Positions 33,138 to 48,466 are shown, counted from the first letter of the stretch. The stretch: DNA of 64,000 nt from an uncultured Nitrososphaerota archaeon (GCA_964408285.1 CAYOYV010000001.1:96001-160000); one strand, 5' to 3'. Notes: generated from the sequence alone by a model not told the origin. A program made the numbers and translations.

Positions 33138-34416
33138 GTCCTGTAGAATATTCGATCCCGACCTTGGGCTTGATCACATGAGGGATGCCAATCTGTTCCA
33201 TTTCCTTGGACAGGAATTCTACATTTTGCCTGGTTCCATGAACTATGAAAGCATATTCTGGACTGATGGTCTTCGCAAACTTCACATAATCTTCCCTCCC
33301 GTTATGGGAAGAGAAGTCGAATTGCTTTATCCTCGCCCTGACTTTGACCAACTTGCCACCTAGCGGCAGAACCTTCTCCTTCAGGAGCATGGCTCCCGGA
33401 GTGCCTTCAACTTGGTAGCTAACGAGAAAGATGGCATCTTTTGGCCTCTTCGCTATCTCCTCAGAATAGAGAACAGAGGGCCCGCCCTTGAGCATTCCTG
33501 CTGGAGTGACTATGACTCCTGGTTGACCGAGTGCAGCTTGCCTATCGTTTCCTGACTGCATGATCGTGACGCTATTGACGGCCTTGGCAAACAGGTCTGG
33601 CTCATTCAGAGCGGGGAGATTGCTCATGAAAATGTCATTCACCGTCCTAGCCATTCCGTCAAGCATAACGGGATAGCGAAACCCATGAGCTTCCAACACA
33701 GCTATGATCTCTTGCGATCTTCCAACTCCGAAGGCTGGGACAAGGACTCTACCTCCTTCTTCGACAATCTGTTCCACCTCCTCTACAAACTGCTTCTCGA
33801 TTGTGTCTCTGCTCGGATGGTCAATTGAAGCGTATGTGCTCTCGGTAATGAGGACATCTATCTGATCGCGAAAATCTACGTCCGCAGGGGGAACTGTCCT
33901 TGTCGCATTCACATTCATGTCTCCGGTATAAAGCGTTCTAATACCATCTGCCTCAATCAAGACCTGTGAGGCCCCAATGACATGACCTGCATTGAACAAC
34001 TCAACGGAGATTCCTCCCGAGCCCACGCCGATCCGCTCTCTGTTCTGCACCGCGGAGGCTAAATCAAGGAGTCTTCTGACCTCTATCGTATCAAATGGGA
34101 GATACGTCTTCGCGATTTTCAGCATATCAAGAAGGAGAATTCTCGACAGAGTTCTCGTCATTGAAGTCATTATCGCCTTTGGATTGCCGCCTATGAAGAA
34201 CAACGGCGCAGAGCCAACATGATCGAGATGGCAATGGCTTATCGCAATGGCTGTGACATTGCTTGGTTGGACGTAGGCAGGAAACCTGACTGTATGATCC
34301 AGAGAGACACCGCTGTCTAGGAGAATGCCCTCGCCTCCAATGGATTCTAGGAATATTGAAGATCTTCCGACTTCTTCAACCCCACCAAGGAACCTTAGTT
34401 TTGGCAATTTCAACAC
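33127..34416 (-). CDS. beta-CASP ribonuclease (aCPSF2-like)
   Basis: LGGVEEVGRS, SHCHLDH, AGHVIG, YTGD, ESTYA, GRSQE and FSSH motifs. Confidence 0.9.
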   Translation of the reverse strand: MLKLPKLRFLGGVEEVGRSSIFLESIGGEGILLDSGVSLDHTVRFPAYVQPSNVTAIAISHCHLDHVGSAPLFFIGGNPKAIMTSMTRTLSRILLLDMLKIAKTYLPFDTIEVRRLLDLASAVQNRERIGVGSGGISVELFNAGHVIGASQVLIEADGIRTLYTGDMNVNATRTVPPADVDFRDQIDVLITESTYASIDHPSRDTIEKQFVEEVEQIVEEGGRVLVPAFGVGRSQEIIAVLEAHGFRYPVMLDGMARTVNDIFMSNLPALNEPDLFAKAVNSVTIMQSGNDRQAALGQPGVIVTPAGMLKGGPSVLYSEEIAKRPKDAIFLVSYQVEGTPGAMLLKEKVLPLGGKLVKVRARIKQFDFSSHNGREDYVKFAKTISPEYAFIVHGTRQNVEFLSKEMEQIGIPHVIKPKVGIEYSTGPKA

Positions 34417-35939
34417 TCTATTTTCAGAATCTTGAGCTTTCTAGAGGTCTTTTTTGACACCTCTATAAATGTTTTCAATTTCCTCGATCCCTTGCGTCCC
34501 ACTGCGACAACCTCCTTCACTCTGCTCAGTAAGGGTATGGCCAACCTTACACCAAGCCCATTCAGGTCCAGATTCTCCGATCCTCCCCAAACTACCTTAT
34601 CAAAAGGAGAGCTGTTCCTCAGAAAGAATGGGACTAGACCCAATACATCGTGGAGTACAAAGAGTGACTCCCATTCTCGAAATCCGCTCCCCTGTCCCTC
34701 TGCTATCGCTTTCGTCACAACGGCTTTGTCAAGGCTACGACCGCCCTCGGGGACTATGACAATCACTTTCTTCGCACGCCAACTCCTCTTCTGGATCTTT
34801 TCAGACATGATCGCTATCTCAGGCCTTGAAAGGCTTTTCTGATCATAAGCAAACAGACCTCTTGCCTTGGCTACTCGGCTATCCGGGAAAATCGCTCTTG
34901 ATCTGCTCGATAGTGCCAAGAATGCGCAATAGAGACCCGGATGGGCTCTTGCCCGCTGTTCCAACAACTCCCAGAGTTCTCCCCTTCTGATGTGCTCCTT
35001 GATGTTCTTCATTTCAGTATAGATCGAGTGCAGATTGTGACCCGCCAGAAGTCTGATCCTCTGAGAATCGCCGATCTCCCTCAATTCCTTTGGAGTATAT
35101 TTCGAACAGATTTGACATGAACAAGGCAGGTATTCAAGAGTGGCCAGATCGAGTGTGCCCTCAGCTGTCATGTATCTGCCATCATAGGCGTAGAGGGCGT
35201 AAGAGGCTGAGTCAAACATATCATACCCAATGGCCACCAACATTCCAAGCAGCATGGGGTGGCCAGCTCCAAAGAAATGGAACGGCTTCGATCTGGAAGC
35301 CCTTTCCTTAGCGGCAATTCCCATCTCTATTAGCCTGTGATATTCATAATTCTCCATGAGTTCTACAGGAGATCCAAGAGCGAGGATGTCGAATCCCATC
35401 TTTGAGATCCTCGTGGAGCATGAGCGCACGAGATCTTGGTGCAGGCCGCCTTGCACTGGCCCGACCCACAGTATGTCCTCCCTCGTTCTCGCGGCCAATG
35501 ATCGCTCGCAGTTTCTGATGGTCTTTCTCACGGTCTGAAGGGCCCTGGCTCTGCTTGCTTTCGCTCCAGTCGGATGATCCAAGACAGTGGCGATGTCAAC
35601 GTTCAATGCCTCCTGAACGGCAACGATTTCCTCAGGCCCAGCGGATACTGTGCCATATCTCAGAACTTGATACCCGCCGGAATCCGTTTGAACAATCCCC
35701 TTGTACTCCAATATCCTATGTATGTCTCTGTCTCCGTCATCAAGAAGATGTTTTCCTATCAGATATGCATTCGTCATTATGGCTCGAGATTCGAATTCCT
35801 TCTCCAATTCTCGAGGAGGGATAACTGGCCTGTTGATGCTGATCACTGGGAGAAAAGCGGGGGTCTCAAGCTGCCCGCTCTTAGTAGATATCCTGCCGAT
35901 TCTGGCATTCATATCAGTCTTTCTGATTTCAAAAGACAA
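34410..35939 (-). CDS. tgtA: Archaeosine tRNA-guanine(15) transglycosylase
   Basis: TDSGGYQ, VQGG, FGAGHP, MFDSASY and CSCQIC motifs; no recognisable PUA domain. Confidence 0.93.
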   Translation of the reverse strand: MSFEIRKTDMNARIGRISTKSGQLETPAFLPVISINRPVIPPRELEKEFESRAIMTNAYLIGKHLLDDGDRDIHRILEYKGIVQTDSGGYQVLRYGTVSAGPEEIVAVQEALNVDIATVLDHPTGAKASRARALQTVRKTIRNCERSLAARTREDILWVGPVQGGLHQDLVRSCSTRISKMGFDILALGSPVELMENYEYHRLIEMGIAAKERASRSKPFHFFGAGHPMLLGMLVAIGYDMFDSASYALYAYDGRYMTAEGTLDLATLEYLPCSCQICSKYTPKELREIGDSQRIRLLAGHNLHSIYTEMKNIKEHIRRGELWELLEQRARAHPGLYCAFLALSSRSRAIFPDSRVAKARGLFAYDQKSLSRPEIAIMSEKIQKRSWRAKKVIVIVPEGGRSLDKAVVTKAIAEGQGSGFREWESLFVLHDVLGLVPFFLRNSSPFDKVVWGGSENLDLNGLGVRLAIPLLSRVKEVVAVGRKGSRKLKTFIEVSKKTSRKLKILKIEC

Positions 35940-35983
35940 ATCTCGACGCCTTTATTAATCTCGATGCCAAAGGCAAGATAAAG

Positions 35984-36640
35984 TTGTCGAGGAGCACGGA
36001 TGAGGTACTCAGTGTGAATACCGCTCCCCGGGAGCCATGGGCAGCTCTCTCAGGACTTCCAGGGCTGGGAGCGGTCGGGGCAGGTGCTGCGTCTCTATTT
36101 CTGGAGCGATCCAATTCGAAACCGCAGATACTGAAATACCTCTTTGCCCGTTCCTCCTACATGAATTTGATTGTCTCTGAGAATCAGGTTGCGTCCCCGG
36201 GTGGATTTACCCTTTTCTATTCAGAGATCGGGCAAAAGAATGTTCCCGTAATTGTTTTGGTCGGAGCTTTCCAGCCCGTGTCACCGTTGTACCAATTCGA
36301 CTTCGCGAAGCTGTTCCTCTCGGCAGCAAAGGAGATGGGTTCGATGTATACCTTCACGTTGGGGGGATATCATTCATCGGAAGCTGGAGCCGAGAGGAAA
36401 ATCTTTGTTCTACCAAATGACTTCCAGACCTACAAGGCCTCGCTTGCTCTTAATTTCATCCTAGCTTCTGGGCAGATCAGTGGGGCAGCTGGGGTGATAT
36501 CAGGAATGTCCAAATATTATGGCTTCAGAGGAGGATGTCTCCTCGCGGAGACAACGGGTGACATTCCCGACAAGTCCGCCTCCCTTGTGCTCTATGAGAA
36601 GACCCTTCTGCTTCTCGACAGCCTCTATCCAGGCAGCTAG
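35984..36640 (+). CDS. PAC2-family proteasome assembly chaperone
   Basis: GLPGLGAVG, FTLGG, GQISGAAG and CLLAET motifs. Confidence 0.85.
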   Translation: MSRSTDEVLSVNTAPREPWAALSGLPGLGAVGAGAASLFLERSNSKPQILKYLFARSSYMNLIVSENQVASPGGFTLFYSEIGQKNVPVIVLVGAFQPVSPLYQFDFAKLFLSAAKEMGSMYTFTLGGYHSSEAGAERKIFVLPNDFQTYKASLALNFILASGQISGAAGVISGMSKYYGFRGGCLLAETTGDIPDKSASLVLYEKTLLLLDSLYPGS

Positions 36641-37059
36641 GGCGGCGTTTCAGATTCCTTCATGAAGTCATCATAGACCTTTCTAACGCGATCAGCGACT
36701 ATCCCTGTCCCCTCCATCACGCCGGTCTCATCAACTCTAACCTTGTCGAGAACGATTATCACTCCTGCTTCCTCGTTATAGCTGACGACCTTTCCGAATA
36801 TATGCTCCAACCTGTCAGCCAGCTTCCTCAGGTCCATGAAAGACTTCGGAATGAATATTGCCTTGACGGAGTTGCCGCTGAGAACTATCTGGAAGTACCT
36901 TTTCTCTCCTTCCTTCTGAACATCACTCATGATTAGCGATAGAGAAACGGGATCGAAGGCGGTCAAGGTCCCCGAAAAGCGGCTAGAGTCGGTTGTTTCC
37001 ACTATCACTGGCTTACCGACCATTTTCTTCAGCTGTGCCTCTAACGTCGCCCTAAGCAT
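36637..37059 (-). CDS. Lsm/SmAP3 RNA-binding protein (Sm fold plus C-terminal domain)
   Basis: Sm1/Sm2 motifs then C-terminal V.YNEEAGVIIVLDKVRV.E.GV.EG.G. Confidence 0.85.
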   Translation of the reverse strand: MLRATLEAQLKKMVGKPVIVETTDSSRFSGTLTAFDPVSLSLIMSDVQKEGEKRYFQIVLSGNSVKAIFIPKSFMDLRKLADRLEHIFGKVVSYNEEAGVIIVLDKVRVDETGVMEGTGIVADRVRKVYDDFMKESETPP

Positions 37060-37124
37060 CTTGCCTGGGAAATGCGCGGTCGATTATTATTGATTTCGCC
37101 CCACGAGACTGCTTATCGCTAGAA

Positions 37125-38162
37125 GTGAGCATTCTCCACATCCGACGGACTCCCCGAGTCAATTTCATGCGCCTGAGTTATCTGGAAGCGCCTCCTCAAA
37201 AGCTCATGGAAAGACACCCTGAATCACCAGATGGAACAGCCTGTCCGGAATGCGGCGGAAAGATAATATGGACCGAGAACGAAGCCGCATGTAGAGGGTG
37301 CGGCTTGGTGATAGAGCCGTCCTTGTTGGATCGATCGGGAGGACAGAATCAGGCCGACTCCTTCGAGACAGACGGGCCATCAGGGCTTCAAGACATCAGA
37401 ATGGGCTCCCACTTGTTCTCCAATCATTCAAGTCCTAGAGGCCTTAGGAGACTCTCGTCTGTGAATCTATGGTCAAGAGGCGCCAGATATTGCCGGCTGA
37501 GCAGATTCTCACGATTAGCGTACATGCTTGGAGATAAGCTCGGAGTCTCCGATCTTACGTGCGAAGCAGCTCTTCTCCTCTTGGAGAGCGCTGCCCGAAA
37601 AGCAGAAGGAAAAAGGGCCAATGTCCTAGCACTGTTAGGCGCTGCATTCATAATAGCATCTCGCAAGCTCGAGGCAGGAAAAGTGGTTTGCGCAAGCGAT
37701 ATTCGGCGAAGTCTGGATTCCTTGGGATTCTCTATGAGGCCGGGGCATATCCTAGACAGTCTGAGCTCGTACAAGGACATCGGCCTATATGTGGCGTCGA
37801 CTCCCCCGATCGACTGTGTGGACGAGATCTTCTCGAGAATCGACTGGACATCACCAACGCATGGGCTCCCCCCCAGGGAAAGATATGAATTCCTAGAGGA
37901 ATTGAAAAGGAACGCAAGGAACCTGCTCTCATTGATCGACCTTCGGGAGATTGGGAGCAACCCTCGTGCTCTTGCCTCCTGCGCAATATACGTATCCTGG
38001 AGGATAGCAGCAAGATCAAGGCAACTTAGCAAGCGCGATATCTCACATGCCTTCATGGCAAGGATCTCTGGACTGGCAGAATATACTATCAGGGAGAATT
38101 ATGAACGCCACTTTCGGCAGCTTCTTGTGGCCGCTGAAATACGACCAAGAATCGATGAGTAG
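37125..38162 (+). CDS. Divergent TFB (TFIIB) paralog
   Basis: CPECGG...CRGCGLV zinc ribbon; cyclin-fold NPRALASCAIY and HTH ARISGLAEYTIRENY. Start uncertain. Confidence 0.8.
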   Translation: MSILHIRRTPRVNFMRLSYLEAPPQKLMERHPESPDGTACPECGGKIIWTENEAACRGCGLVIEPSLLDRSGGQNQADSFETDGPSGLQDIRMGSHLFSNHSSPRGLRRLSSVNLWSRGARYCRLSRFSRLAYMLGDKLGVSDLTCEAALLLLESAARKAEGKRANVLALLGAAFIIASRKLEAGKVVCASDIRRSLDSLGFSMRPGHILDSLSSYKDIGLYVASTPPIDCVDEIFSRIDWTSPTHGLPPRERYEFLEELKRNARNLLSLIDLREIGSNPRALASCAIYVSWRIAARSRQLSKRDISHAFMARISGLAEYTIRENYERHFRQLLVAAEIRPRIDE

Positions 38163-38565
38163 CTTGGACGATCACGTCCCCTTGCATTGCCATGGTAGAG
38201 ATATGAAGTTTGACATAGTATGCCGTCGCATTCTCAAGCGCATACTCTGACAATTCCCACTTGCACATCAAACCGCGAGGACTATTCAGACCGGAAGCCA
38301 ACCTGTCAAGTCCTGTCTGAAGGGCGCGATCGATGACTTCCTCAGGAATGCCAGAATCGGAAAGGTAGGACTGATTCAATGCGGCCAAGGCTCCTGCTGA
38401 CTCTTGAAGGATTCTGTGTACATCCTCTTTCAGCAGGACGACATGGAGCCTGTTGTGCAGAGTCAGAGAGGCAGATTCCCTCAGTCGCGCCAGATCGACG
38501 ATTATCGGGAATGAAGTCAGAAGAATGACTAAGCTGACTCCCAAGAGAGGAGATGATAGTTTCAT
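38089..38565 (-). CDS. Minor pilin-like protein
   Basis: Single N-terminal hydrophobic helix; last gene of the overlapping operon behind the prepilin peptidase. Confidence 0.5.
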   Translation of the reverse strand: MKLSSPLLGVSLVILLTSFPIIVDLARLRESASLTLHNRLHVVLLKEDVHRILQESAGALAALNQSYLSDSGIPEEVIDRALQTGLDRLASGLNSPRGLMCKWELSEYALENATAYYVKLHISTMAMQGDVIVQATHRFLVVFQRPQEAAESGVHNSP

Positions 38566-38909
38566 TCGTCGAACGCCATGATGTAGCTTATGCCTTCTTC
38601 CCGGATCAAGATTGAAATCCTGGAATATAGCGTCTCGCCTGTTCTAACGTTGTCCACCAAACCGTAAGTGACAAGAATGAAATTCTGCTTCAGTCCTCTG
38701 TTCAGCCTGGGGAATCTATCAGGAGCTAGTTCCAGACCAAAGATCCTTGTGCGTCGGCTACCAAGAGACTCTGCGATGAGTCTCTCGAGATCTTCGATCG
38801 AACTCCCATTGTACGTTTTCAGCATCGGTTTTGCAAAGGTCGACAGGAGGACAAGACAGCCGATCCACACGCCCAGATTGGCCAGAATGCTGTCCACCTC
38901 GCTATTCAT
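38562..38909 (-). CDS. Minor pilin-like protein
   Basis: N-terminal transmembrane helix; ATGA coupling to the next gene. Confidence 0.5.
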   Translation of the reverse strand: MNSEVDSILANLGVWIGCLVLLSTFAKPMLKTYNGSSIEDLERLIAESLGSRRTRIFGLELAPDRFPRLNRGLKQNFILVTYGLVDNVRTGETLYSRISILIREEGISYIMAFDE

Positions 38910-38913
38910 GGGA

Positions 38914-39060
38914 TCAGATCCCCTCCAGCACCTTTATCAGCAATTCCATCTCTGAAAGATCGTGGATCATTATTTCGCCGAGCAATCTTATTCCCATGAT
39001 GAAAAGGCACAAACCGATGACCGCAATGCCGAATTCCATGAAAGCCCCTAGTTTTGTCAT
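38914..39060 (-). CDS. 48-aa pilin-like protein (absent from ORF track)
   Basis: MTKLG|AFMEFGIAVIGLCLFIMG, class III signal-like; TGATG overlap with the upstream gene. Confidence 0.6.
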   Translation of the reverse strand: MTKLGAFMEFGIAVIGLCLFIMGIRLLGEIMIHDLSEMELLIKVLEGI

Positions 39061-39407
39061 CAATGCTTCTCCCATCTAATGGCAATTGCACCCGAGGGAT
39101 TACTAGTGATTTCAGCCTCAGGAGGAAGAACTACCGAAGTCCTGCGCCCATCTATTCCCAAGAGGCATATCTCCCTTGACCTCGTTACTGCTATTCTGAA
39201 CAGGCTCGTATTCGTCATGCTCAGAGAAATGGTGATTTGCTCGCCTTCTTCCAGTTTCGGCGCTCTCGTCGCATCCGTGAGAAGTCTCGCAGCGTCATCG
39301 TAGGTCCTTCCATAGACGCCGACTAGGAAGTTGAGATAGGGGATGAGAATCGACAGGGATATCAACAACCAAGCAGCTGTTTCACCAAGGTATTCTAGAT
39401 GTTCCAA
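39060..39407 (-). CDS. Minor pilin-like protein
   Basis: N-terminal transmembrane helix followed by a beta-rich domain. Confidence 0.5.
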   Translation of the reverse strand: MEHLEYLGETAAWLLISLSILIPYLNFLVGVYGRTYDDAARLLTDATRAPKLEEGEQITISLSMTNTSLFRIAVTRSREICLLGIDGRRTSVVLPPEAEITSNPSGAIAIRWEKH

Positions 39408-39604
39408 GTGGGAAACCCCTCGGGAAAAAAGCCCTCATAGAACGCACAGAAATGCAATGCCCTCACCTCACCGAATGTCTTCCCATATGCCTCTAGTATA
39501 GCTCTCAGTAGTGGGATCACGTCGTTGATGAAGACCAACAACGCACCTATTGAGAGGAAGATTGAAAGCGCGAAAATCAATGTCTTTTCAATTAACAAGC
39601 TCAT
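39395..39604 (-). CDS. Small pilin-like protein
   Basis: MSLLIEKTLIFALSIFLSIG aligns with the mature major pilin SQLIEEGLLIVLAL. Confidence 0.55.
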   Translation of the reverse strand: MSLLIEKTLIFALSIFLSIGALLVFINDVIPLLRAILEAYGKTFGEVRALHFCAFYEGFFPEGFPTWNI

Positions 39605-39606
39605 TG

Positions 39607-40179
39607 CTAGATCAGTATCTGTCTGAATGCCAGCCCTATAAGCGCCCCTAATTGGAGATAAGGGATCAAAGGCGCTGAGACGATCTTCCGTTCAGGCTTG
39701 CCGCAAAAGAGAGACAAAGACCATAGGAAGGGCAAGAACGACGCCGCCAAGCAGACAACGCTCCTTCTGGAGATGGCTCGATCGAGGCCTTCTTTCCGAA
39801 GCAATATGGAGAAGGAGTTGATCATCATTACTTCAGCGATTGTGAGAGACAATGGTTCGCAAACGGAAACAATCACTGAGATGCCGCTAATCTCTATCGG
39901 CTTTGGGAAAACGAGCACAGTGCCAACTACATACAAGACATCCGCAAGCCCTGTCATCCCAAGAAGAATCATTCCTGACATCAGAAGGATTGGAATCAGG
40001 TTATTTGTAACCAATTCCAGAATATTCACCGGCTCATATGAAGCTAGCAAGAGGAATTGAATTAGGCACATGACAGAATAACCGACAATGAGAAGGATTG
40101 AGACTTCCTTGTGTAGAAGGTCCTCGATTGCGATAAGAAGAGAAATCGCTAGGAGCACGCAGTGCATCAGAGAAAGCAT
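39607..40179 (-). CDS. Prepilin peptidase (A24/PibD-like)
   Basis: Polytopic; AIEDLLHKEV (Asp 1), MTGLADV (Asp 2) and PLIPYL motifs. Confidence 0.75.
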   Translation of the reverse strand: MLSLMHCVLLAISLLIAIEDLLHKEVSILLIVGYSVMCLIQFLLLASYEPVNILELVTNNLIPILLMSGMILLGMTGLADVLYVVGTVLVFPKPIEISGISVIVSVCEPLSLTIAEVMMINSFSILLRKEGLDRAISRRSVVCLAASFLPFLWSLSLFCGKPERKIVSAPLIPYLQLGALIGLAFRQILI

Positions 40180-40233
40180 CAGTCATGTCATTCAATTGGT
40201 GCTCATAAGGGCCAATCATCCTTGTTTTCTGGT

Positions 40234-40389
40234 TTGTCCGAAAAGGATCCACTTCTCGAAGCAATAGTCGATGAACTCAGGAGGCTTAGATCAGAGATGA
40301 GCAAGATCAGATCGAAAATGGATGACATTCAGGAGAGGATTTTGGAACTAGAAAGGAAGTGCACAATCACGGAAATGGCGGACGGATAG
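40234..40389 (+). CDS. Small coiled-coil protein
   Basis: LLEAIVDELRRLRSEMSKIRSKMDDIQERILELE heptads; TTG start assumed; 6 bp before the ATPase. Confidence 0.55.
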   Translation: MSEKDPLLEAIVDELRRLRSEMSKIRSKMDDIQERILELERKCTITEMADG

Positions 40390-40395
40390 AAGACC

Positions 40396-42228
40396 ATGGC
40401 CACAGCAGCAGTATCCTATCGTCCCGAGATCGGACTTCTCCATATCCAGGCATCTGAGATCGGAGATGATATTGAGCAGCCCAAGAGGTTGGCTTGCTTC
40501 TACCTCAGATTCGCGGGTAGGACCGAGAGATTGAAGGTGGAAACGCCTAGAGGAATTGAAGAAATCACGTCAGAGAAGACAATCAGGGGGCTAATGGAAA
40601 GATCGAAAGCTATCTCAAGGACAATCAGAGCGGCGTCCTTTGACAAGCAGTTTTCGAAGTCAGTAGAGCTCGCTGAACTCAGCGTATATCCCGCGATAGG
40701 CCTTGCGTATTCTCCTTCCCAAAGAATCCACAAGCCACGGCGGGTCACATACGCCTTCTATTCCGAGGATGAGGCTACAAGACTGAATGTTGGGGAAAAG
40801 AGCACCAACTTGACCAAACACCCGCCTATGTCTCATCTAAGGATCTCAATTGACGAGGATAGACATCTCTATTCCGTCCAATACCTAGCCGAGGCCTACA
40901 ATAGGCTGATTTTAGATGTCTCTTTCTTCATGAGGGGGCTGATCTGCAAAGAGTTTCTCGACAGAGGCAGGTTCTCGGAATTTGTCATATTCCGTCAATC
41001 CATAGGAAAGTCATACCTCAGGAATGTGTCCGGAGGACTAACTGAGGATCTGGAGTCTTCGATTATTCATCATTCTTCGTTTAGATCGATTGGACTCTCA
41101 AAGCTCTATCCACTTCTCGTTGACGAAAAGGTCCAAGAAATATACCTCGATCGCGTGGGAAAGAGAATATACGTGGATCACTCTCTTTCCGGCAGACTGC
41201 TGACGAACATCCGTCCCCGAAGACAGGACATTGAAGCTTTGGTGACAAATCTCCGGCGGAATTCAGGGAGGGAGCTTGACGCTCGTGTTCCGTCAATAAA
41301 GGGTGACCTCCAAACAGATCTCTTCATCTCCAGAGTGGCAATAGACTGCTATCCCTTGGTTGATTCCGAATACGCTTTTGACATCAGGAAATTGAGACCC
41401 CGCCCCTTCTCCTTGTTGGAACTAACTAGACAGGGCTCAATAGACGACGTACTAGCTGCAATCCTAATATCAGCTATTGTCTCTAAGATGAATATTTCAA
41501 TAGTGGGTGAGCCAGGAAGCGGAAAAACGACGCTTCTCTGTGCCCTAGACCTTGTGACTCCTCCTTGGTGGAGAAAAATATACATCGAGGATGCTGTCGA
41601 ATTGAGGTCCTACAGTGAGTCCAATTCAGCCCATTGTCTGAGGATAATAGTGGATCCGTTCGAAAGCTCAGAATCTTCTAGGAGGAAATCAGATGAGATA
41701 ATCAAGGTTCTCCATCGGAATCCTTCGTATGTTGTTCTAGGAGAGGTACAATTCAAGGATCACTTCAAAGCTCTGTTCCAAGCGATGGCAGCTGGAATAA
41801 AGCTCATCCACACTGCTCACGCTCCTTCAGGCAGGGGCTTCATCCAAAGAGTCGTCAACGTGTATGGAATTCCTTCAGAGCTCGTGTCGAACCTGGATGT
41901 GCTGGTTGAGATGGAGAAACTCGAATCTTTCCGAGACGTCAGAAGAGTCGTTTCAGGCGCATATTTCCTGACGGGCAATGACCCAAGTGGTAAGGAACAG
42001 GGGCAACAGAGCTCGCTGAGAGAGATTGGCAGATGTCCCCGCATTGAGGATGGCCATCGGATTCTTGAGGAACTCGAGACAAAGAACAGAAAGCACAGCG
42101 GATCAGTCGTCGCCTTGTTTGACCAAGTCTTGGATTCAATACATACAGCTCAGGAAAACGGATCGGAGATCCTAAGATTTCCTCTCCAACATCCCCGGAG
42201 GAACGACGGCTCAGGATCGACAGGGTGA
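40396..42228 (+). CDS. Type II/IV secretion (TadA/VirB11/FlaI family) assembly ATPase
   Basis: GEPGSGKTT, IEDAVEL, VLGEVQ and HTAHA motifs. Confidence 0.9.
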   Translation: MATAAVSYRPEIGLLHIQASEIGDDIEQPKRLACFYLRFAGRTERLKVETPRGIEEITSEKTIRGLMERSKAISRTIRAASFDKQFSKSVELAELSVYPAIGLAYSPSQRIHKPRRVTYAFYSEDEATRLNVGEKSTNLTKHPPMSHLRISIDEDRHLYSVQYLAEAYNRLILDVSFFMRGLICKEFLDRGRFSEFVIFRQSIGKSYLRNVSGGLTEDLESSIIHHSSFRSIGLSKLYPLLVDEKVQEIYLDRVGKRIYVDHSLSGRLLTNIRPRRQDIEALVTNLRRNSGRELDARVPSIKGDLQTDLFISRVAIDCYPLVDSEYAFDIRKLRPRPFSLLELTRQGSIDDVLAAILISAIVSKMNISIVGEPGSGKTTLLCALDLVTPPWWRKIYIEDAVELRSYSESNSAHCLRIIVDPFESSESSRRKSDEIIKVLHRNPSYVVLGEVQFKDHFKALFQAMAAGIKLIHTAHAPSGRGFIQRVVNVYGIPSELVSNLDVLVEMEKLESFRDVRRVVSGAYFLTGNDPSGKEQGQQSSLREIGRCPRIEDGHRILEELETKNRKHSGSVVALFDQVLDSIHTAQENGSEILRFPLQHPRRNDGSGSTG

Positions 42229-42238
42229 GCGCCAACAG

Positions 42239-42790
42239 ATGGATGGTTTGACGAAATCCCGAAACCGTGTAGCCTCACTCGCGAGAATCACCCGAAGGCG
42301 CTTCCTGCCCATGTCAAAGCGCAGTAGACCGGATTCCTATCTGTTTTTCCTATTCTTCTCCCTCAGGAAAGCCGGTCTGTCGTTTCCGGAGGTGTGGCAT
42401 CGGTTGGCAGAAATCGAGAACGAGCCCGCTCTGATTACCTCGATGGTCAACAGGCTGACCCAAAGGAATCGTTACAGAGGATCAAGTCTATCTGGCAAGC
42501 TACACCGTTGGGAAGGCTTGCTTAACATGAGAGATGGGGTCAGATCCAGACTTGTCTTGCTTGAGACAAGTATCAGAAATCGATTCAGAATAGGAGCTGC
42601 TAACATGCAGATGAAGCTCATAGTGCTGACATTCTTTCTTTTCGTTGTGCCTTTTTCAGCCTTAGTGTCATGGTCATACCTTCTCGGGGCTAGAACGGAT
42701 TTGCTGGTTCTTTTCGTCCTCATGTATCCTCCCTTCCTAAGTATAATTTCGGAATGGGCCACGAAGACCGATGAGGAACTGGTCTGCTGA
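42239..42790 (+). CDS. TadB/TadC-like membrane platform protein
   Basis: SLRKAGLSFPEVW plus two C-terminal TM helices; directly follows the ATPase. Confidence 0.55.
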   Translation: MDGLTKSRNRVASLARITRRRFLPMSKRSRPDSYLFFLFFSLRKAGLSFPEVWHRLAEIENEPALITSMVNRLTQRNRYRGSSLSGKLHRWEGLLNMRDGVRSRLVLLETSIRNRFRIGAANMQMKLIVLTFFLFVVPFSALVSWSYLLGARTDLLVLFVLMYPPFLSIISEWATKTDEELVC

Positions 42791-43574
42791 ATTGGGTGGT
42801 ATGCTTTGGCCAATATCTTGCGTGTTAGCATCAATCGTCATATCGACAGCGCCAATGGATGACGAGTTCAGGATAGCTCTGGCTTCAATGCTCTCCTTGT
42901 TGCTCGCCTTTGCGGCCTCACTTCACAGCGTCCAAAGAAAAAGGGAGATTCGCCAGAAAGAGCAGCTTCTCGATTTCTATTCAGGTCTTTCCGAGAATTT
43001 CTCAGCAGGATTGGGACAGGAAGCATCGTTCCTTATGCAGGCCAACTCGAGCGAGTTGCTCAGCAGACAAGGAAGATCTTGGATCATTCTTGAGTTGGCC
43101 GGGGGAATGAAACTCGAAAGGCTCCTTGAGAAAACGGCTGAAAAGGGGAGGGGGCTTGAGAGACAATTGCCTGAAGTCTTCGGACATCTGCTTCTGAGCG
43201 GCATGGCAAGGACAAGTGTGGCATCAGAGATCCTGAACCTCTGGACAGAGAATCTAGCCATATCGACAGAAACTGACCGCTTGTTGTCGGAGACCTCATC
43301 TAGGGCCCAATTCCTTTACTTTCTGAATTCGTTTGCTTTCGGCTTTCTCGCTTCCTCATTCAGTCTGATCCGAAAGATGGCCAATCCCTTTGATGCCTTG
43401 ACTCGCGTTTCGTCGAATCCGTTGGTTCCACTGGCCATTTTCGCGTTTCAGTCGACTATCTACCTGCTTGTGTGCAAGAGGTTCAGCTTCACAAGACAGC
43501 TGGAAAAATACGCGATATCCGCATTGATCTTCTGGGGGACCTTCTTGTGCTTCCAAGGCGTTCTGGATTATTGA
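42771..43574 (+). CDS. TadC-like membrane platform protein
   Basis: TM - LLDFYSGLSENFSAGLG..ASF - ..AGGMKLERLL - TM pattern of T2SS-F domains. Confidence 0.65.
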   Translation: MRNWSAELGGMLWPISCVLASIVISTAPMDDEFRIALASMLSLLLAFAASLHSVQRKREIRQKEQLLDFYSGLSENFSAGLGQEASFLMQANSSELLSRQGRSWIILELAGGMKLERLLEKTAEKGRGLERQLPEVFGHLLLSGMARTSVASEILNLWTENLAISTETDRLLSETSSRAQFLYFLNSFAFGFLASSFSLIRKMANPFDALTRVSSNPLVPLAIFAFQSTIYLLVCKRFSFTRQLEKYAISALIFWGTFLCFQGVLDY

Positions 43575-43585
43575 TTCATTGGGGA

Positions 43586-43592
43586 TTATATA
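43586..43592 (+). promoter_or_regulatory. Putative TATA box of the major pilin gene
   Basis: TTATATA 22 bp before the ATG, inside an imperfect GGGG..TATA..TATA.CCCC inverted repeat. Confidence 0.5.
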
Positions 43593-43613
43593 CGCTATAG
43601 CCCCTATCCGGCG

Positions 43614-43814
43614 ATGACTCAGAAAAAGAAAGCAAGGATAAAGGCTTCACAGCTGATAGAGGAGGGTCTGCTGATAGTGTTGGCTCTTGTGATGGTCGGC
43701 GCAGTATTCGGCGTCTCCAAGTCCTTGGTAACGGGCATAAGCGGCTTTTTCGATAATATAATAAAGGGAATAGGGGACATCGCATATAGTCTCTTCGGTT
43801 GGGTAATTCCATAG
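43614..43814 (+). CDS. Major pilin, Flp-sized, class III signal peptide
   Basis: MTQKKKARIKA|SQLIEEGLLIVLALVMVGAVFG: basic leader, Glu at +5, hydrophobic helix. Confidence 0.8.
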   Translation: MTQKKKARIKASQLIEEGLLIVLALVMVGAVFGVSKSLVTGISGFFDNIIKGIGDIAYSLFGWVIP

Positions 43815-43831
43815 CCTCTCCTTGATCTCAG

Positions 43832-45700
43832 ATGAACGAGAAGTCCGAGCGGGCCATATTCGTCAGCCTTGCAGCAATGTCATTGATCCTTTTCGGATTG
43901 AAACTTCTTTCTCGTGACCTTGTTTCGAATCAGCTGTCTTATCTGCTATTGACAGTGGCCAGCTGCTCTTGCATCTTCGCTTTGACATATTTCATCGGAA
44001 GGTCAGTTCGCGAGATATCAGTATCGTCATTTCTGGATGGCAGCCGTAGTGGCGACGTTGCGATATTGAAAGGAAAAAAGGATACCATACTCATCAAGGG
44101 GTTTGAGGTCATAGAGGGCCCTGACCCAGATCCAAAGTACTCGCAGTCGGAGAGCAGATCTCCACAGGCCCAAACGCCCCTTGAAGCATTGGTCAGGGTA
44201 GGAGTACAAGCAAGAATCATTACATCTGTTTCTACACCATCCAATATAATTTCCTCCTCGGCTGGCAATGATATCGAACGACAAGGGTTGATTAGAACTG
44301 TCGTCCTTGTCTTCGAGAAATGCGAATCCTCTGAGTCCGCAGAAGCTAGGAATATTCTCGATAGGCAGTGTGAGGTGGCGAAGTCTGCAATGCTGACGTC
44401 AACTAGGAATTGCCGAGTCAATCAACTGATTGGAGAAGCCCTGCTTGATTATCTCGAGGGGCTCTATCTTTACGATCATCGGAACCAGGGCGTTCGTCAA
44501 GCTGCGACTTTTCTCAGAAGCGTCTCCTTGGCTCATTTCCAGGATGGCAGGTTTATTGACATAGTCGGAGGCTCCTTCATTCCGCCTCCCCAGAACACCG
44601 AGAGAATCCATTTGGGCAACACTCTTTATGCAGGGGTCATGGGTCCAGATTGCACTATCCCACTATCCTCCTTATCTAGGCATGTGACAATATTCGGCTG
44701 TACTGGGGCAGGAAAATCGAATACGGCCAAGGCTTTGCTCATGACTCTTGTGAATAGGGACATACCCGTACTTGTTCTGGACTTCCACAATGAATACCTA
44801 GGCCTCATGGCTGCCATCGGCGGCCTAGCGATACGATTCGGGGGCGAATGCCATATTGATCTGCTGAACCCAGTCGATGCTGGCAATTTCATAGATCATG
44901 TCACAGTCGTTGCCGATGTCTTCGATCACGCCTATCACTTCACGGCCTCTCAGCAATTCGTCTTCAGAGAAGCACTGATGAGAACCTTCGCCTCCTGCAC
45001 ACTCGGCGGGAACCGCCCCACACTTGAGGATGTTGTGAATGAGATTGAGCGATATGAAACCAAGACCTTCTACGAACATGAGACGAAATTCGCCTTGCTG
45101 AGGAGGCTCAAACCATTGATCGAGGGAGAGGGCAGGAAGGCATTCGTCAATGGCAGACCGATGAACGTTCACGAACTGTCCAAGAGGCCTTGCGCACTCG
45201 CATTCGGAGACCTGAAGAATACCGGTCTAAGGAAACTGGCAGCAACAATGATCTTGGCCCTCCTCTACGAACTGAGACTATCCGAGGGGGCAAGTCCCAT
45301 CAGACATGCAACCATAATAGAGGAATCTCAGAATGTTCTGCCCTATAGGCTCAGAACAGAGGAAGCGACGATCATCGAGAGAATGTTCTTTGAGATGAGA
45401 AAGTATGGAGAATGCCTAGTTTTGCTGGCCCAATTCCCAACACAAATATTCCCGGACGTGACAAAATCTGCTGGGACAAAGTTGGTTCACAGACTGACGG
45501 AGGCTGGAGAGGCGGAGCTAATCATGGATGTGATGGGACTGGGGAGAAATCTGTATTCTCAGCTTAAGTACTTGCCGGAGGGACGGGCCATTGCCCTCAT
45601 TGAAGGTCTTAGCTACCCGATCACTATTCAGATCCCTCTTGCAGAGTCATATTCGCCACCTTCACGGCTTCAGCCAGTTCATTCGATTGATACAGCCTAG
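43832..45700 (+). CDS. Membrane-anchored HerA/VirB4-like (DUF87; CedB-like) ATPase
   Basis: Two N-terminal TM helices; HVTIFGCTGAGKS, LDFHNEY, IIEESQN, EMRKYG and AQFP motifs. Confidence 0.85.
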   Translation: MNEKSERAIFVSLAAMSLILFGLKLLSRDLVSNQLSYLLLTVASCSCIFALTYFIGRSVREISVSSFLDGSRSGDVAILKGKKDTILIKGFEVIEGPDPDPKYSQSESRSPQAQTPLEALVRVGVQARIITSVSTPSNIISSSAGNDIERQGLIRTVVLVFEKCESSESAEARNILDRQCEVAKSAMLTSTRNCRVNQLIGEALLDYLEGLYLYDHRNQGVRQAATFLRSVSLAHFQDGRFIDIVGGSFIPPPQNTERIHLGNTLYAGVMGPDCTIPLSSLSRHVTIFGCTGAGKSNTAKALLMTLVNRDIPVLVLDFHNEYLGLMAAIGGLAIRFGGECHIDLLNPVDAGNFIDHVTVVADVFDHAYHFTASQQFVFREALMRTFASCTLGGNRPTLEDVVNEIERYETKTFYEHETKFALLRRLKPLIEGEGRKAFVNGRPMNVHELSKRPCALAFGDLKNTGLRKLAATMILALLYELRLSEGASPIRHATIIEESQNVLPYRLRTEEATIIERMFFEMRKYGECLVLLAQFPTQIFPDVTKSAGTKLVHRLTEAGEAELIMDVMGLGRNLYSQLKYLPEGRAIALIEGLSYPITIQIPLAESYSPPSRLQPVHSIDTA

Positions 45701-45836
45701 AACTGGATTTCTGCTTGGGTGCAATCCTGGCTCCACAATAGGGACATTGCCTCCGCTTTGTCCCGACCTTCATGCCGGTGTAGCGTCCACAATCGGAGCA
45801 TCTAACTAGAAGATACAGAGTCCTTGCCAAGTTCAA
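45624..45836 (-). CDS. DUF1922-like zinc-ribbon protein
   Basis: YLLVRCSDCGRY...QCPYCG; follows the adenylate kinase gene. Confidence 0.7.
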   Translation of the reverse strand: MNLARTLYLLVRCSDCGRYTGMKVGTKRRQCPYCGARIAPKQKSSSRLYQSNELAEAVKVANMTLQEGSE

Positions 45837-46401
45837 GAAACCTCCTGATCTCTTCTTCCTTCATCTTGAGAGTCCAATCTATGGAAGGTCTGCTGCCCAC
45901 GAATCCGGTCTCGATGAAGCGTCGGAGAGCTCTGCTGAGCTGGCAGATGGTCTTACCAGTTGAGTCTATTTCGAATACATGCGTCCTGTCCTTGAGCTCG
46001 GATGAGATCAGCCCTATGAACTCAGCAATCGAATTGTCCTTTGCTTTCTTGGCTCCGTAGCGCCTCTGCAATCTCCGATATAGCTGCGAGGGCTCCAATC
46101 TCATCAGGAAGATGCCAGCCTTCGACTCCTTAGGTACAACATGGTGCGAGAAAGAACCATCTAACAGAACAACACGGTCTCCCCTTTCACGGACGAGTTT
46201 CGCTATAGCTTTCTTGAGCCTTCCCATGTCCGCAACGTATGCCTCTCTGCCCCTGTCGTAGCTCCGATAGATGTGTTGTTTCCTGACAAGCTCACCTATT
46301 TCGATATATCCATAGCCGGATTCCCTTGTTGCGTGTCGGCATAAGGTTGTCTTGCCAACCCCCGGGGTGCCCGTTACTGCAATTACCCTTGCTCTCGTCA
46401 A
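45802..46401 (-). CDS. Atypical adenylate kinase (AK6/Fap7 family)
   Basis: VTGTPGVGKTT, RLQRRY..KAKDN..AE and IDW motifs. Confidence 0.88.
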   Translation of the reverse strand: MTRARVIAVTGTPGVGKTTLCRHATRESGYGYIEIGELVRKQHIYRSYDRGREAYVADMGRLKKAIAKLVRERGDRVVLLDGSFSHHVVPKESKAGIFLMRLEPSQLYRRLQRRYGAKKAKDNSIAEFIGLISSELKDRTHVFEIDSTGKTICQLSRALRRFIETGFVGSRPSIDWTLKMKEEEIRRFLELGKDSVSSS

Positions 46402-46612
46402 TGCCTAAGTTAATGTGGGATCAGGTTATAATAACCTAATCTGAGTCGGTTGGCTGGAACCACCAGATATTGGGACGAAGGCTTTTGATTCAAGAAAATG
46501 CAGGGAATGCCACACGCGGACTCCCAGAAACGGATCGAAAAGGAGAAGCCCAAATATGAGTGATCTGAGATCTCCGCAATCTTAATCAATTGCTGAGAGA
46601 ACGGACAGAGAG

Positions 46613-46714
46613 GCTCCGGTGGTGTAGTCCGGTCAAGTTGGCCGATAGCATGCGAGCCTCTCGGTAATCTGAGGGGGAGAGCTCGCAACCCGGGTTCAAA
46701 TCCCGGCCGGAGCA
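46613..46714 (+). tRNA. tRNA-Glu(CTC) with two introns (D-loop, 11 nt at 46636-46646; 37/38, 16 nt at 46664-46679)
   Basis: Acceptor GCTCCGG/CCGGAGC-A; CGAGC CT-CTC-G|A GCTCG; T loop TTCAAAT; BHB helices CGGT:GCCG and CTCT:GGGG. Confidence 0.93.
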
Positions 46715-46739
46715 CCTCGAATACTCGATGAGGGGAAAT

Positions 46740-48368
46740 TCACTCCTGTTGCTTTTTCTCTGGCATCTTCATCGAGAGCAACATGTCATCGATCCTAAGG
46801 AGTATTGATGCCAACTCCGTCGACGAATTCAGTATCGTCCTCACCGTTCTAAGTGGCTCCCATATTCCTCTCTTCTTTGCATCGGCTATCTCGCCCTTGA
46901 CCGAATCTATGCCGACATAAGTGCCCTTCTTGTTTGAGTGGGCGGCTCTGAGGTCGCCCAGAGCCTTTGTTACCTTCATCCCTGAATTGTCAGCTATGGC
47001 CTGAACGACATCCGTTAGGGAATCGGAGAAGGCCTCAATGACCATCGCCATCTCCCCCTTCTTATTGGTAGAATATCTTTTGGTTCGGATTGCCAGTTCA
47101 GCGAAATCGGATGCTCCGGTCGGAACGACCTTAGGCTCTGTGAATAGCATTTGGATCCCTGCTAGTGCCTTCTTGATGGCTCTCTCGTTCTCCTTCATGA
47201 GTTCCTTGTTGACTCCCCTAAGAAGGATGGACACCGATCTTGACTTGAGACCGCCTTCGATCATGACGGCCTTTTCGTTTTCTAGCTTCCTCTCCTCCAC
47301 TACAGAGGCGCTTCCAAGGATTGCAGGCGTAACGTCCAGATAGTAGCTCACGATTTTGCCTCCTGTGGCTCTCGCCAATTTCTCTATGTCCGATCTCTTG
47401 ACATTCTTGATGGCCAGAATCCCTGCCTTGGCCAAAGAAGAGCTCGAGGTATCGTCGATACCCTTCTGGCATATCAGCACATTCGCCCCGCTGTCCAAAA
47501 CCTTCTTGATCTTGTCTGTCACAGACTTCCTTTCTTCGGCCTTTAGCTTCATATAGGACTGCGGATCCGTGAATTCCAGTTCAGACGATATCTCTGTTTT
47601 CTTAACTTCCAATGGGAAGTCTATTATTGCGATCCTTGCTCCAAGTATCCTGTCTGGCATGTTGGGGTGAACTATCTCCTTCTCGATTATCAGTCCCTTG
47701 ACCAGTGACGATGAAGAAACATCTCCCCCGGCCTTACTGATTATTGCCACATTATCTGAGTCAAGCTTCATCTGCCCGTCAATCTGCTCAGAGACGCTGT
47801 CGACTGCCTCCATGATTAGATCGGTGAACTTGTCTGACGCCTGTAAGTCGCTTCTGCTAAGCGTAGGAAGTAGTATGGTCCTCACCACGTTCCTTACCCC
47901 TTCCTTACTCGATGGAGGAGCATTCATGGCCATTCTCCCCAGAATTGCAGTACAGAACTTGAGCGCGTCGGCGTATCCTTGGGCTACTATTGCAGGGTGA
48001 ATGCCCTTCTCATACAGATCTGCACCATGCCTAACTAGCCTTGAGGTCAGGAAGATAGCCCTAGATGAGCCATCACCTTCATTCTTATCTAATGTCTTTG
48101 CCGCTTCTACATATAGCTTCCCGACTGGGTGCTCTATGTTGGCCTCAGAGAGAATCGTGATGCCACTCTTGCTGTAAGTCACATCCCCGAAGCTCCCGAC
48201 GAGCATCTTGTTCAATCCTCGGGGACCAATGGATGTCCTGACGACCTCGCCGACTATGGAGCTAACAGACAGAATGTTGGACAGTGCGTCTTCCCCACTC
48301 GTCCTAGCCACGTTCTCTTTCATTATGTACACAGGTTGACCCCGAATTTGAGCCGGAATGGCTTCCAA
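46740..48368 (-). CDS. Thermosome (group II chaperonin) subunit, divergent
   Basis: IGPRGLNKML, EHP, HPNMP, CQKGID and ILRID motifs; ATPase motifs altered. Confidence 0.9.
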   Translation of the reverse strand: MEAIPAQIRGQPVYIMKENVARTSGEDALSNILSVSSIVGEVVRTSIGPRGLNKMLVGSFGDVTYSKSGITILSEANIEHPVGKLYVEAAKTLDKNEGDGSSRAIFLTSRLVRHGADLYEKGIHPAIVAQGYADALKFCTAILGRMAMNAPPSSKEGVRNVVRTILLPTLSRSDLQASDKFTDLIMEAVDSVSEQIDGQMKLDSDNVAIISKAGGDVSSSSLVKGLIIEKEIVHPNMPDRILGARIAIIDFPLEVKKTEISSELEFTDPQSYMKLKAEERKSVTDKIKKVLDSGANVLICQKGIDDTSSSSLAKAGILAIKNVKRSDIEKLARATGGKIVSYYLDVTPAILGSASVVEERKLENEKAVMIEGGLKSRSVSILLRGVNKELMKENERAIKKALAGIQMLFTEPKVVPTGASDFAELAIRTKRYSTNKKGEMAMVIEAFSDSLTDVVQAIADNSGMKVTKALGDLRAAHSNKKGTYVGIDSVKGEIADAKKRGIWEPLRTVRTILNSSTELASILLRIDDMLLSMKMPEKKQQE

Positions 48369-48466
48369 ACAGAATCACCAAGAAGCTGACGCGGAATGCC
48401 TGATAAAAAGGTTTTTGTCTTAATCCTTAAATAACTGTGGCAGTTCTCGACCGAGGAACGGATCGA

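Follow-up and report, generated by a model that had tools for sequence, protein, structure and literature searches.

The exchange of DNA between archaea is known mechanistically only from the Sulfolobales, with their Ups pili and Ced system, and from the Ted and Ced pili of hyperthermophiles; CedD was named as recently as 2025. As described in that year, CedD is a membrane ATPase of the HerA/FtsK superfamily that is essential for DNA import in S. acidocaldarius and Sa. islandicus, and the portions of the reports that deal with its occurrence place its orthologs only in organisms with a Ced or a Ted system (PMC11823120; PMC11868833). The present analysis concerns a stretch of 64,000 nucleotides from an uncultured Nitrososphaerota archaeon (GCA_964408285.1 CAYOYV010000001.1:96001-160000), called here the window, and in it a locus at positions 37125-45700 where two tightly packed divergent operons lie, the plus-strand one ending in a 622-residue ATPase of the HerA superfamily. 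The locus unites the genes of a type IV filament, a CedD-related ATPase and a TFB paralog in a conserved cluster. This combination suggests that a system for DNA exchange by way of a pilus exists outside the Sulfolobus group.

The Sulfolobales have the same three functions in Ups, Ced and TFB3 (pilus, CedD-family ATPase and TFB paralog); here, unlike there, they all lie in one locus. According to the regulatory sections of two studies, TFB3 of the Sulfolobales activates ups, ced and cedD (PMC6101591, PMC6101594), and it was found at the promoter of herA1 (SiRe_1715, which is cedD; PMC6101594). A second system to be compared is subclade 4D of the archaeal type IV pili, described in the passages devoted to it as an ATPase of ~356 residues, a truncated TFIIB of ~160 residues and one protein with 4-5 transmembrane segments, with no pilins, peptidase or HerA-type gene; these passages treat it as a pilin-less remnant that is confined to Pyrobaculum and Thermoproteus or scattered (PMC4858521; Sivabalasarma & Albers 2026). 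In their main texts, these two censuses of archaeal type IV pili never tie a HerA-type ATPase to a pilus locus. The literature searched holds no description of a pilus-CedD-TFB operon, and the supplements of the 2026 census may list such loci.

The locus and its CedD-clade ATPase

The ATPase that ends the plus-strand operon had been labelled CedB-like in the initial annotation; by its sequence it is to be placed in the CedD clade instead. Its best NCBIfam model is CedD (NF053655; 2.6e-40, 138.6 bits), and the CedB model (NF041017) gives no match to it at E<=0.1, the verified CedB of a Sulfolobaceae-type genome (G115) scoring 822.6 bits to that model. In a quick tree of 56 rows with SH-aLRT values as its only support, the pilus-linked ATPases form one clade (support 99) nested in a larger CedD clade of 36 rows (SH-aLRT 96), which takes in the Sulfolobaceae CedD that passes the curated cut-off as well as CedD of the Desulfurococcales type and leaves CedB and HerA outside. 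Twenty-two alignment columns are invariant between the pilus-linked ATPases and CedD, as are the Walker A motif GxxGxGKS and the EE of Walker B. The build of transmembrane domain, N-domain and ATPase domain is likewise that of CedD of the Ced system (Sulfolobales, Desulfurococcales and Acidilobales) and of TedD (Thermoproteales), as set out in the parts of PMC11868833 that treat these proteins. In the AlphaFold2 (AF2) model (pLDDT 76), helices at residues 3-26 and 33-62 correspond to the two N-terminal transmembrane helices noticed earlier, the ATPase domain is modelled at >90 and the N-domain poorly; with this model, Foldseek retrieves HerA at 1e-18 and the ATPase domain of VirB4 at a TM-score of 0.73. 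Unlike CedD, the window's protein has its gene at the end of a type IV filament operon.

Elsewhere in the genomes of relatives (L071 on G001:C4, L073 on G024:C5, and G021, G020 and G011) lies a 750-residue paralog of the pilus-linked clade, which was not found in the host genome and could belong to a mobile element. The host itself carries three more DUF87-type ATPases, of 486-490 residues and of no clear family, on contigs C2, C18 and C22 (L103:4059-5516, L104:3239-4708 and L105:3001-4461), the best NCBIfam scores of which are ~32-36 bits to CedD; no match to the canonical HerA model was seen for them.

Thirteen genes in three transcription units, namely the plus-strand TFB-like gene, a block of six genes on the minus strand and another block of six on the plus strand, stand between an LSm gene and an AAA_18 gene. 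The list of open reading frames (ORFs) confirms the two divergent operons and every gene named in the initial annotation at its place:

37125..38162, plus strand: TFB paralog with a Zn ribbon and two cyclin repeats; the start is possibly an internal ATG (MERHPES...)
38089..38565, minus strand: 158-residue protein with one N-terminal hydrophobic helix, a candidate minor pilin or accessory protein (position and similar N-terminus in relatives)
38562..38909, minus strand: 115-residue protein with one N-terminal helix, a candidate minor pilin (positional equivalents in relatives)
38914..39075, minus strand: 53-residue pilin-like protein, ...KLG/AFMEF... followed by a hydrophobic helix (as read from the sequence)
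39060..39407, minus strand: 115-residue protein with the N-terminus MEHLEYLGETAAWLL... (family-conserved motif ME.hEF...LAWLL)
39395..39604, minus strand: 69-residue leaderless pilin paralog (phmmer matches in relatives; family model)
39607..40179, minus strand: 190-residue A24-type (prepilin/preflagellin) aspartyl peptidase, divergent and polytopic (Pfam Peptidase_A24 in its family)
40180..40233, no strand: divergent spacer with a TATA-like box, CTCATAAG, at 40201-40208
40222..40389, plus strand: small coiled-coil protein of ~55 residues, with possible starts at 40162, 40222 and 40234 (conserved in 14 relatives)
40396..42228, plus strand: 610-residue filament assembly ATPase of the FlaI/TadA/VirB11 family (Pfam T2SSE)
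42239..42790, plus strand: putative platform half 1, T2SSF/TadB-like, 183 residues (Atlas features)
42771..43574, plus strand: putative platform half 2, T2SSF/TadC-like, 267 residues (weak Pfam T2SSF in the family, Atlas, AF2 model)
43614..43814, plus strand: 66-residue Flp-like type IV pilin (family cleavage motif)
43832..45700, plus strand: 622-residue CedD-clade membrane ATPase of the HerA/FtsK superfamily (DUF87/HerA 1.7e-14; NCBIfam CedD; tree)

Neighbouring plus-strand genes are separated by -20 to +39 bp and neighbouring minus-strand genes by -16 to +4 bp, and the HerA-type ATPase gene follows the pilin gene after 17 bp, the distance given before. The TFB ORF converges, as had also been noticed, on the 158-residue gene and shares 74 bp with it (38089-38162); its stop-to-stop frames overlap by ~50-66 bp in the four relatives looked at (L022, L025, L027 and L034). 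At the opposite end, the CedD-like gene overlaps a convergent DUF1922 Zn-ribbon gene by 77 bp (45624-45700), so that the locus ends on either side in a convergent overlap, which could bring about antisense or termination coupling. Taken singly, nine of the 13 proteins have no Pfam match; the peptidase, platform and pilin labels were therefore tested via family alignments of related loci.

Conjugation systems typically have ATPases of the HerA/VirB4 and VirB11 types, and an integrated conjugative element, of which the locus would be a part, could also draw on the separate 750-residue paralog in related genomes for support. Such an origin is nevertheless highly improbable: the same chromosomal slot is occupied over many families, the GC content of the locus is even (0.47-0.52) and the same as in the remaining window, the ORF list for 34000-49000 contains no integrase, relaxase or VirB6/VirB2-type gene, and the CedA model is blank in the genome.

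The filament module

The 610-residue ATPase matches Pfam T2SSE (6.7e-17; 61.6 bits against a cut-off of 24.9), which identifies it as a secretion ATPase, and the NCBIfam models FlaI (1.3e-24) and TadA (1.6e-19). Its first ~230 residues (40396-41080) have no family match in Pfam or NCBIfam, and this N-terminal part varies widely in relatives, in which the total length runs from 501 to 726 residues. Unlike the pilus ATPase of the Ups system, it is no closer to UpsE-like than to FlaI- or AapE-like ATPases, and an Ups ancestry was rejected for this absence of special closeness.

The protein encoded at 39607-40179 is, judging from its family (A2), an A24-type prepilin peptidase with both catalytic aspartates, D20 and D80 being invariant and GLAD replacing GxGD; five of nine family members match Pfam Peptidase_A24 (best 9.5e-11), the window copy only via the family. 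Compared with solved chains, FlaK included, the peptidase profile has no match. In the loci of one genus (g6; L027-L034) the A24 peptidase gene is absent and the pilin leader retained; a gene for the peptidase must therefore lie at another place in these genomes.

A basic leader, a predicted cut after KA and a Glu at +5 (SQLIEEGLL...) characterize the 66-residue protein. The motif [KR]x0-2[GAC][SVIA][QP]L[IVL]EE, of the class III cleavage type and with cleavage predicted, is present in 25 of 25 matches of the family, in the alignment of which E16, E17 and L20 are invariant. The leader, the G/A cut site and the Glu at +5 together make this protein a Flp-like type IV pilin. Its profile has no significant match among solved chains, CedA1 and TedC included, a blank that alone proves nothing; a VirB2/CedA1-like reading of the protein is ruled out by the conserved class III-type motif. 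The family model of the 69-residue paralog also matches the 66-residue pilins. This paralog starts at MS-LLIEK, i.e., with a mature-type N-terminus devoid of a leader, likewise in relatives, and might thus enter the filament without cleavage by the peptidase. The four other small minus-strand proteins (158, 115, 53 and 115 residues) have no family match, and the 158-residue protein has no sequence match beyond the genus in the related stretches; each has one N-terminal helix and equivalents at matching positions in relatives. The coiled-coil protein has only sub-threshold matches to coiled-coil Pfam families.

The two membrane proteins encoded downstream of the ATPase are probably a split T2SSF platform, on evidence that is weak or indirect. 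Half 1 has no Pfam match, and its Atlas features match T2SSF clusters at 0.91 (21 of 30 matches), which serves as a lead only; one sub-threshold T2SSF match is found when 18 positional platform homologs are compared with Pfam, and in one relative (L040) the two halves are fused as a single ORF of 376 residues. For half 2, weak Pfam T2SSF matches occur in four of 17 family members (best 8.9e-4), and Atlas gives T2SSF/FlaJ at 0.92-0.93 (TM-score 0.64). In its AF2 model (pLDDT 73), residues 54-178 resemble SpoIIIAB (Z 9.4), the cytoplasmic domain of EpsF (Z 9.2), the N-domain of PilC (Z 8.5) and TcpE (Z 6.4), Z scores of 8-9 being within the range that helical bundles reach by chance. Foldseek returns nothing for this model, hhalign finds no match between the two halves, and neither of their profiles matches a solved T2SSF chain. 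These blanks make the identity of the platform less certain and, with the range of the Z scores, count against the reading of the locus preferred below.

In bacterial Tad/Flp systems, the platform is made by two genes, TadB and TadC, and TadV is a small A24 peptidase. The likeness of the locus to these systems lies in its TadA-like ATPase, its putative split platform, the extreme shortness of its pilin, in which Glu stands at +5, and its small dedicated A24 peptidase. Unlike bacterial Tad, the locus has no secretin and no TadZ- or TadG-type genes, its ATPase is of the archaeal type, and it has in addition the HerA-type ATPase and the TFB. The host genome contains, on contig C9 (L106:3053-9294), a second, conventional type IV pilus locus with a UpsA-like pilin, a FlaI-like ATPase (342 bits), a FlaK-like peptidase and a UpsF/FlaJ-like platform of 702 residues.

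The TFB paralog, the shared spacer and subclade 4D

The TFB paralog matches Pfam Zn_Ribbon_TF below its cut-off (1.9e-5), and the profile of its family (A1) matches the archaeal TFB core (1D3U/1AIS) at 2.8e-16 over both cyclin repeats. It is without the GPEWR B-reader motif, which 12 of 12 canonical TFBs compared carry; two canonical TFBs are encoded elsewhere in the host genome. TFB3 of the Sulfolobales is truncated, a coiled coil replacing the C-terminal cyclin/helix-turn-helix part, whereas the TFB of the locus is full-length with both cyclin repeats; in BLASTP, the 195-residue TFB3-type protein of G115 aligns with it over the Zn ribbon only. In the TFB tree, the family of the locus joins the TFIIB homologs of subclade 4D with a support of 99.

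The divergent spacer, estimated at about 55 bp in the initial annotation, measures 42-54 bp if the coiled-coil gene starts at TTG 40222 or 40234. These starts are preferred because the conserved core of the family begins later than GTG 40162, from which the longest ORF would overlap the peptidase gene. The TATA-like box lies mid-spacer, and an element of the form CTCATAAG, CTTATAA(G/C) or TAT(A/T)TAAG is kept at the spacer position among the 17 loci compared. One box placed halfway between the two start codons would fit a bidirectional promoter with leaderless transcripts.

Three Thermoproteales-type genomes (L075-L077) carry an LSm gene, then a TFB paralog, then a short ATPase gene, and the coordinates of one of them (L076, in G084) are those of the P. 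aerophilum subclade 4D genes arCOG05557, 05558 and 05559 (Table S4 of PMC4858521), beside which the same table places a thermosome gene and arCOG00999 (LSm). In the ATPase tree, the family of the window and the 4D ATPases form one clade (SH-aLRT 100), apart from FlaI-, UpsE- and AapE-like ATPases. The ATPase and the TFIIB of 4D are therefore sisters of those of the window, and LSm (arCOG00999) and thermosome are common neighbours. Unlike in 4D, the ATPase has 610 residues rather than 356-357, the TFB has two cyclin repeats against the single one of the 4D TFIIB, and what would be all parts of a working filament are present together with the CedD-like gene. A match to an already described type IV pilus clade, which had been named beforehand as an outcome that would refute the initial reading, thus holds for the ATPase/TFB pair only; 4D has been described as pilin-less and with no HerA gene.

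For 4D itself, the parts of PMC4858521 that discuss it propose a transcription-linked system other than a pilus, in which the site of action of a remnant secretion ATPase and a variant TFB would be RNA polymerase or chromatin and not the cell surface. Applied to the present locus, this would agree with the sister relationship of the ATPase and the TFB to the 4D forms and with the missing B-reader motif; the conserved pilin motif, the A24 peptidase with both aspartates and the T2SSF-like proteins, all of them unlike 4D, point instead to assembly at a membrane, and the proposal is here very unlikely to apply.

In two Sulfolobaceae-type genomes, G115 and G122, TFB3-type genes (166-195 residues) are found within 2-3 kb of cedD: in G115 the TFB3-type gene, a thermosome gene and cedD stand side by side with the thermosome between the other two, and in G122 LSm, the TFB3-type gene and cedD lie within 6 kb. 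The earlier statement that pilus, Ced and TFB3 of the Sulfolobales are encoded at separate loci holds only in part, in view of this proximity of ~2 kb between a TFB3-type gene and cedD. An RPB8 identity, RPB8 being named in the 4D locus, was considered for the 140-residue gene upstream of the locus and was dropped: the gene encodes the LSm + Lsm_C protein, and Table S4 of PMC4858521 shows RPB8 of P. aerophilum between the TFIIB homolog and the LSm gene. The FlaI-like gene that this table reports near a "HerA helicase" in Cenarchaeum symbiosum was also set aside, its genes being divergent, its context another one and its arrangement different.

Conservation, distribution and the proposed machine

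The host genome (1.82 Mb in 46 contigs; completeness 93.7%) has family-level relatives deposited as metagenome-assembled genomes (MAGs) of Nitrososphaerota, Thaumarchaeota, Thermoproteota or Brockarchaeota. Around homologs from the family and the order of the host and from four other families, 18 of 20 stretches keep the order TFB - ATPase - pilin - HerA together with the flanks, the full conserved order being PAC2 - LSm - TFB - small genes - ATPase - platform - pilin - CedD-like - kinase; of the two that deviate, L036 is a contig end and L035 has no ATPase. The initial annotation had held that its reading would fall if the HerA-like gene and the TFB were not conserved next to the pilus genes; in relatives they are. 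The same arrangement occurs in four further families (L058, L059, L060 and L062), and the complete genomes G032 and G039 have the full locus. An ortholog of the pilus ATPase (E<=1e-30) is present in 48 of the 201 genomes sampled from the phylum, 37 of which have a CedD-model match within ~4 kb on the same contig, with one more (G130) recognized by a hidden Markov model; the ten exceptions comprise the three loci with no CedD-like gene and the two rearranged or split cases taken up below, the 4D-type G126, G006 with a contig break, and G102, G157 and G163, which have no CedD-model match within ~4 kb. At the loci with a pilus ATPase, the TFB paralog is found in 33 of 33 and the CedD-like gene in 25 of 33, so that the TFB is the most constant companion of this ATPase. 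In one MAG of 57% completeness (G004), the whole locus is found twice, on contigs C17 and C12 (L021 and L022), each time between the same flanks; a bin that mixes two strains is a likelier cause than a duplication.

The flanking genes of the window are as follows:

36637..37059, minus strand: LSm + Lsm_C protein (Pfam Lsm_C 5.2e-16, LSM 6.7e-7)
45802..46401, minus strand: AAA_18 protein, adenylate-kinase/Fap7-like (Pfam AAA_18 2.9e-20)
46740-48368: thermosome gene beyond the AAA_18 flank (Cpn60_TCP1 3.5e-130)

Between the kinase-like and thermosome genes, a 101-residue ORF (46410-46715) has no Pfam match and is perhaps no gene.

In eight crenarchaeal loci (L051-L057 and L061), CedD adjoins the same LSm and/or kinase genes with nothing between, which makes the ATPase gene of the window the positional counterpart of CedD; the slot is common to it and to CedD of the Desulfurococcales type. 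CedA (model NF041796) occurs in 22 of the 201 genomes, and the overlap of these with the 48 pilus-ATPase genomes is zero. Unlike Ced, the system thus has CedA in none of the 48 genomes, and no CedB was found in the host. Model searches of the host genome are blank for CedA, CedB and ComEC (Pfam Competence, E<=0.01, which 11 of 14 control genomes match), in agreement with the earlier remark that no CedA- or ComEC-like channel is visible. In an evolutionary reading of these distributions, the locus would be the complete form and the crenarchaeal arrangements its relics, i.e., 4D in the Thermoproteales, cedD alone in Desulfurococcales-type genomes and tfb3 with cedD in the Sulfolobaceae, the Ced apparatus (CedA/A1/A2/B), which resembles a type IV secretion system, having replaced the pilus module in Crenarchaeota.

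It could be argued that nothing but inherited synteny is at work, PAC2, LSm, the Fap7-like kinase and the thermosome forming a conserved housekeeping region in which the pilus, TFB and CedD-like genes share no function. The flanks are indeed as strongly conserved as the locus, and the parts also occur separately, CedD alone in L051-L057, TFB with ATPase in L075-L077 and the module with no CedD in L131, L132 and L134. Yet the genes are co-oriented with gaps of 17-39 bp or overlaps, the TFB accompanies the ATPase at every one of the 33 loci, the rearranged L131, L133 and L137 included, the TFB and ATPase trees both tie the locus to the 4D forms, and the distribution is complementary to that of CedA; mere synteny is accordingly improbable.

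The best explanation of these observations is that the locus is one vertically inherited chromosomal machine of three parts; that a type IV filament works in it together with a CedD-type DNA translocase, under the control of a dedicated TFB, is given here a probability of roughly one half. The first part would be the Tad/Flp filament, with ATPase, split platform, Flp-like major pilin, leaderless paralog, four small proteins and an A24 peptidase of its own; the second, the CedD-clade membrane-anchored, presumably hexameric ATPase, the gene of which probably closes the transcript of the pilus operon; and the third, the full-length TFB paralog that lacks the B-reader. The TFB may switch on both divergent operons from the TATA-centred common spacer, the ATPase and platform would build a short pilus or pseudopilus that touches a partner cell or DNA, and the CedD-like ATPase, with two transmembrane helices per subunit (12 per hexamer), would draw DNA across the membrane and may itself line the pore. 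In Gram-positive competence, a ComG pseudopilus works with a ComEC/ComFA translocase; the FtsK-like TraB of Streptomyces moves DNA as a single hexamer, and pumps of the FtsK/SpoIIIE/TraB type are thought to line their own pore. Both the competence pseudopilus and TraB serve the working model as analogies only; no ComEC is found here, and the ATPase family is different. That one locus joins pilus, DNA translocase and initiation factor, as the initial annotation had it, is borne out for the filament module, the CedD-family ATPase and the TFB; DNA uptake, its other element, is a function suggested by the CedD relationship and the operon link. Putative in the same sense are DNA as the substrate, the direction of transport, the pore, the regulation by the TFB and a trigger such as DNA damage.

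A different role for the ATPase has to be weighed at this point: the filament could be an ordinary adhesion or aggregation pilus and the CedD-like protein a second filament motor (for retraction, pilin extraction or protein secretion) that moves no DNA. PilT is absent from archaea, according to the relevant part of PMC4858521, so that another ATPase could serve retraction; the CedD-like gene lies only 17 bp after the pilin gene, pilus modules with no CedD-like gene, as in L131, L132 and L134, are what would be expected of an accessory part, and the locus contains no nuclease, single-stranded DNA-binding or recombination gene in the ORF list and Pfam. Against a second motor, however, the characterized relatives in the ATPase clade act in DNA import, the nearest solved folds are HerA DNA translocases and VirB4, and the cedD of Desulfurococcales type keeps the slot where there are no pilus genes and hence has no need of this filament. 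A second motor is thus unlikely.

Several observations weigh against a filament coupled to DNA transport, in addition to those on the platform. The 622-residue ATPase is far below the curated CedD equivalog cut-off (138.6 against 600 bits), which makes it a distant relative, the substrate of which may differ; that cut-off is passed in only seven of the 201 genomes, all of one family (f21), and CedD of the A. pernix type scores 201 bits. The tree of this ATPase, quick as it is and supported by SH-aLRT only, holds no bacterial VirB4 or VirD4 rows and places a long-branch VirB4-like protein of G115 inside the "CedD" clade. Three loci of two families (L131, L132 and L134; f36 and f27) have TFB, ATPase and pilin in the same slot and no CedD-like gene, the genes stand apart (rearranged or split) in L133 and L137, and CedD is absent from L075-L077. 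The lineages in which the pilus module persists with no CedD number at least three; with pilus modules devoid of CedD and CedD devoid of pilus modules, each can exist alone, and the case for an obligatory coupling is weaker. Since related genomes are not independent, the complementarity of CedA and the pilus module may amount to one or two events. In the best TFB tree, TFB3 of the Sulfolobaceae falls on the canonical side, apart from the TFBs of the locus, and grouping it with these and the 4D TFBs by constraint costs 0.58 log-likelihood units and is not rejected (p-AU 0.45). By phmmer in related stretches, relatives of four of the five small proteins are detected only within the family. Finally, all 11 sequencing runs that contain the stretch, which occurs in sediment metagenomes, are of DNA.

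A wider proposal, that CedD rather than the Ced apparatus is the ancient core of a DNA exchange system found throughout the Thermoproteota, is tentative at best: CedD would originally have worked with a Tad/Flp-like filament and a TFB of its own in a single locus flanked by LSm and thermosome genes, the filament would have been replaced later in Crenarchaeota by CedA/A1/A2/B, with 4D, the pairing of tfb3 and cedD and the solitary cedD as relics, the 12 transmembrane helices of the hexamer would form the pore, and mesophilic archaea of sediments, not belonging to the Crenarchaeota, would take up or exchange DNA with the system. The composition, the conservation and the ancestry of the locus are well supported, and the evolutionary link is of real interest to the field. 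If the coupling of filament and translocase is true, DNA transfer based on CedD would reach the widespread uncultured non-crenarchaeal Thermoproteota of sediments, and a type IV filament could take the place of a conjugation-like pilus as the partner of a CedD-type translocase. This would offer an origin for three puzzles, namely the pilin-less 4D with its TFIIB homolog, tfb3 beside cedD and the missing pore. The TFB paralog, bound as it is to a single operon pair at all 33 loci, is a natural case for the study of promoter-specific TFBs.

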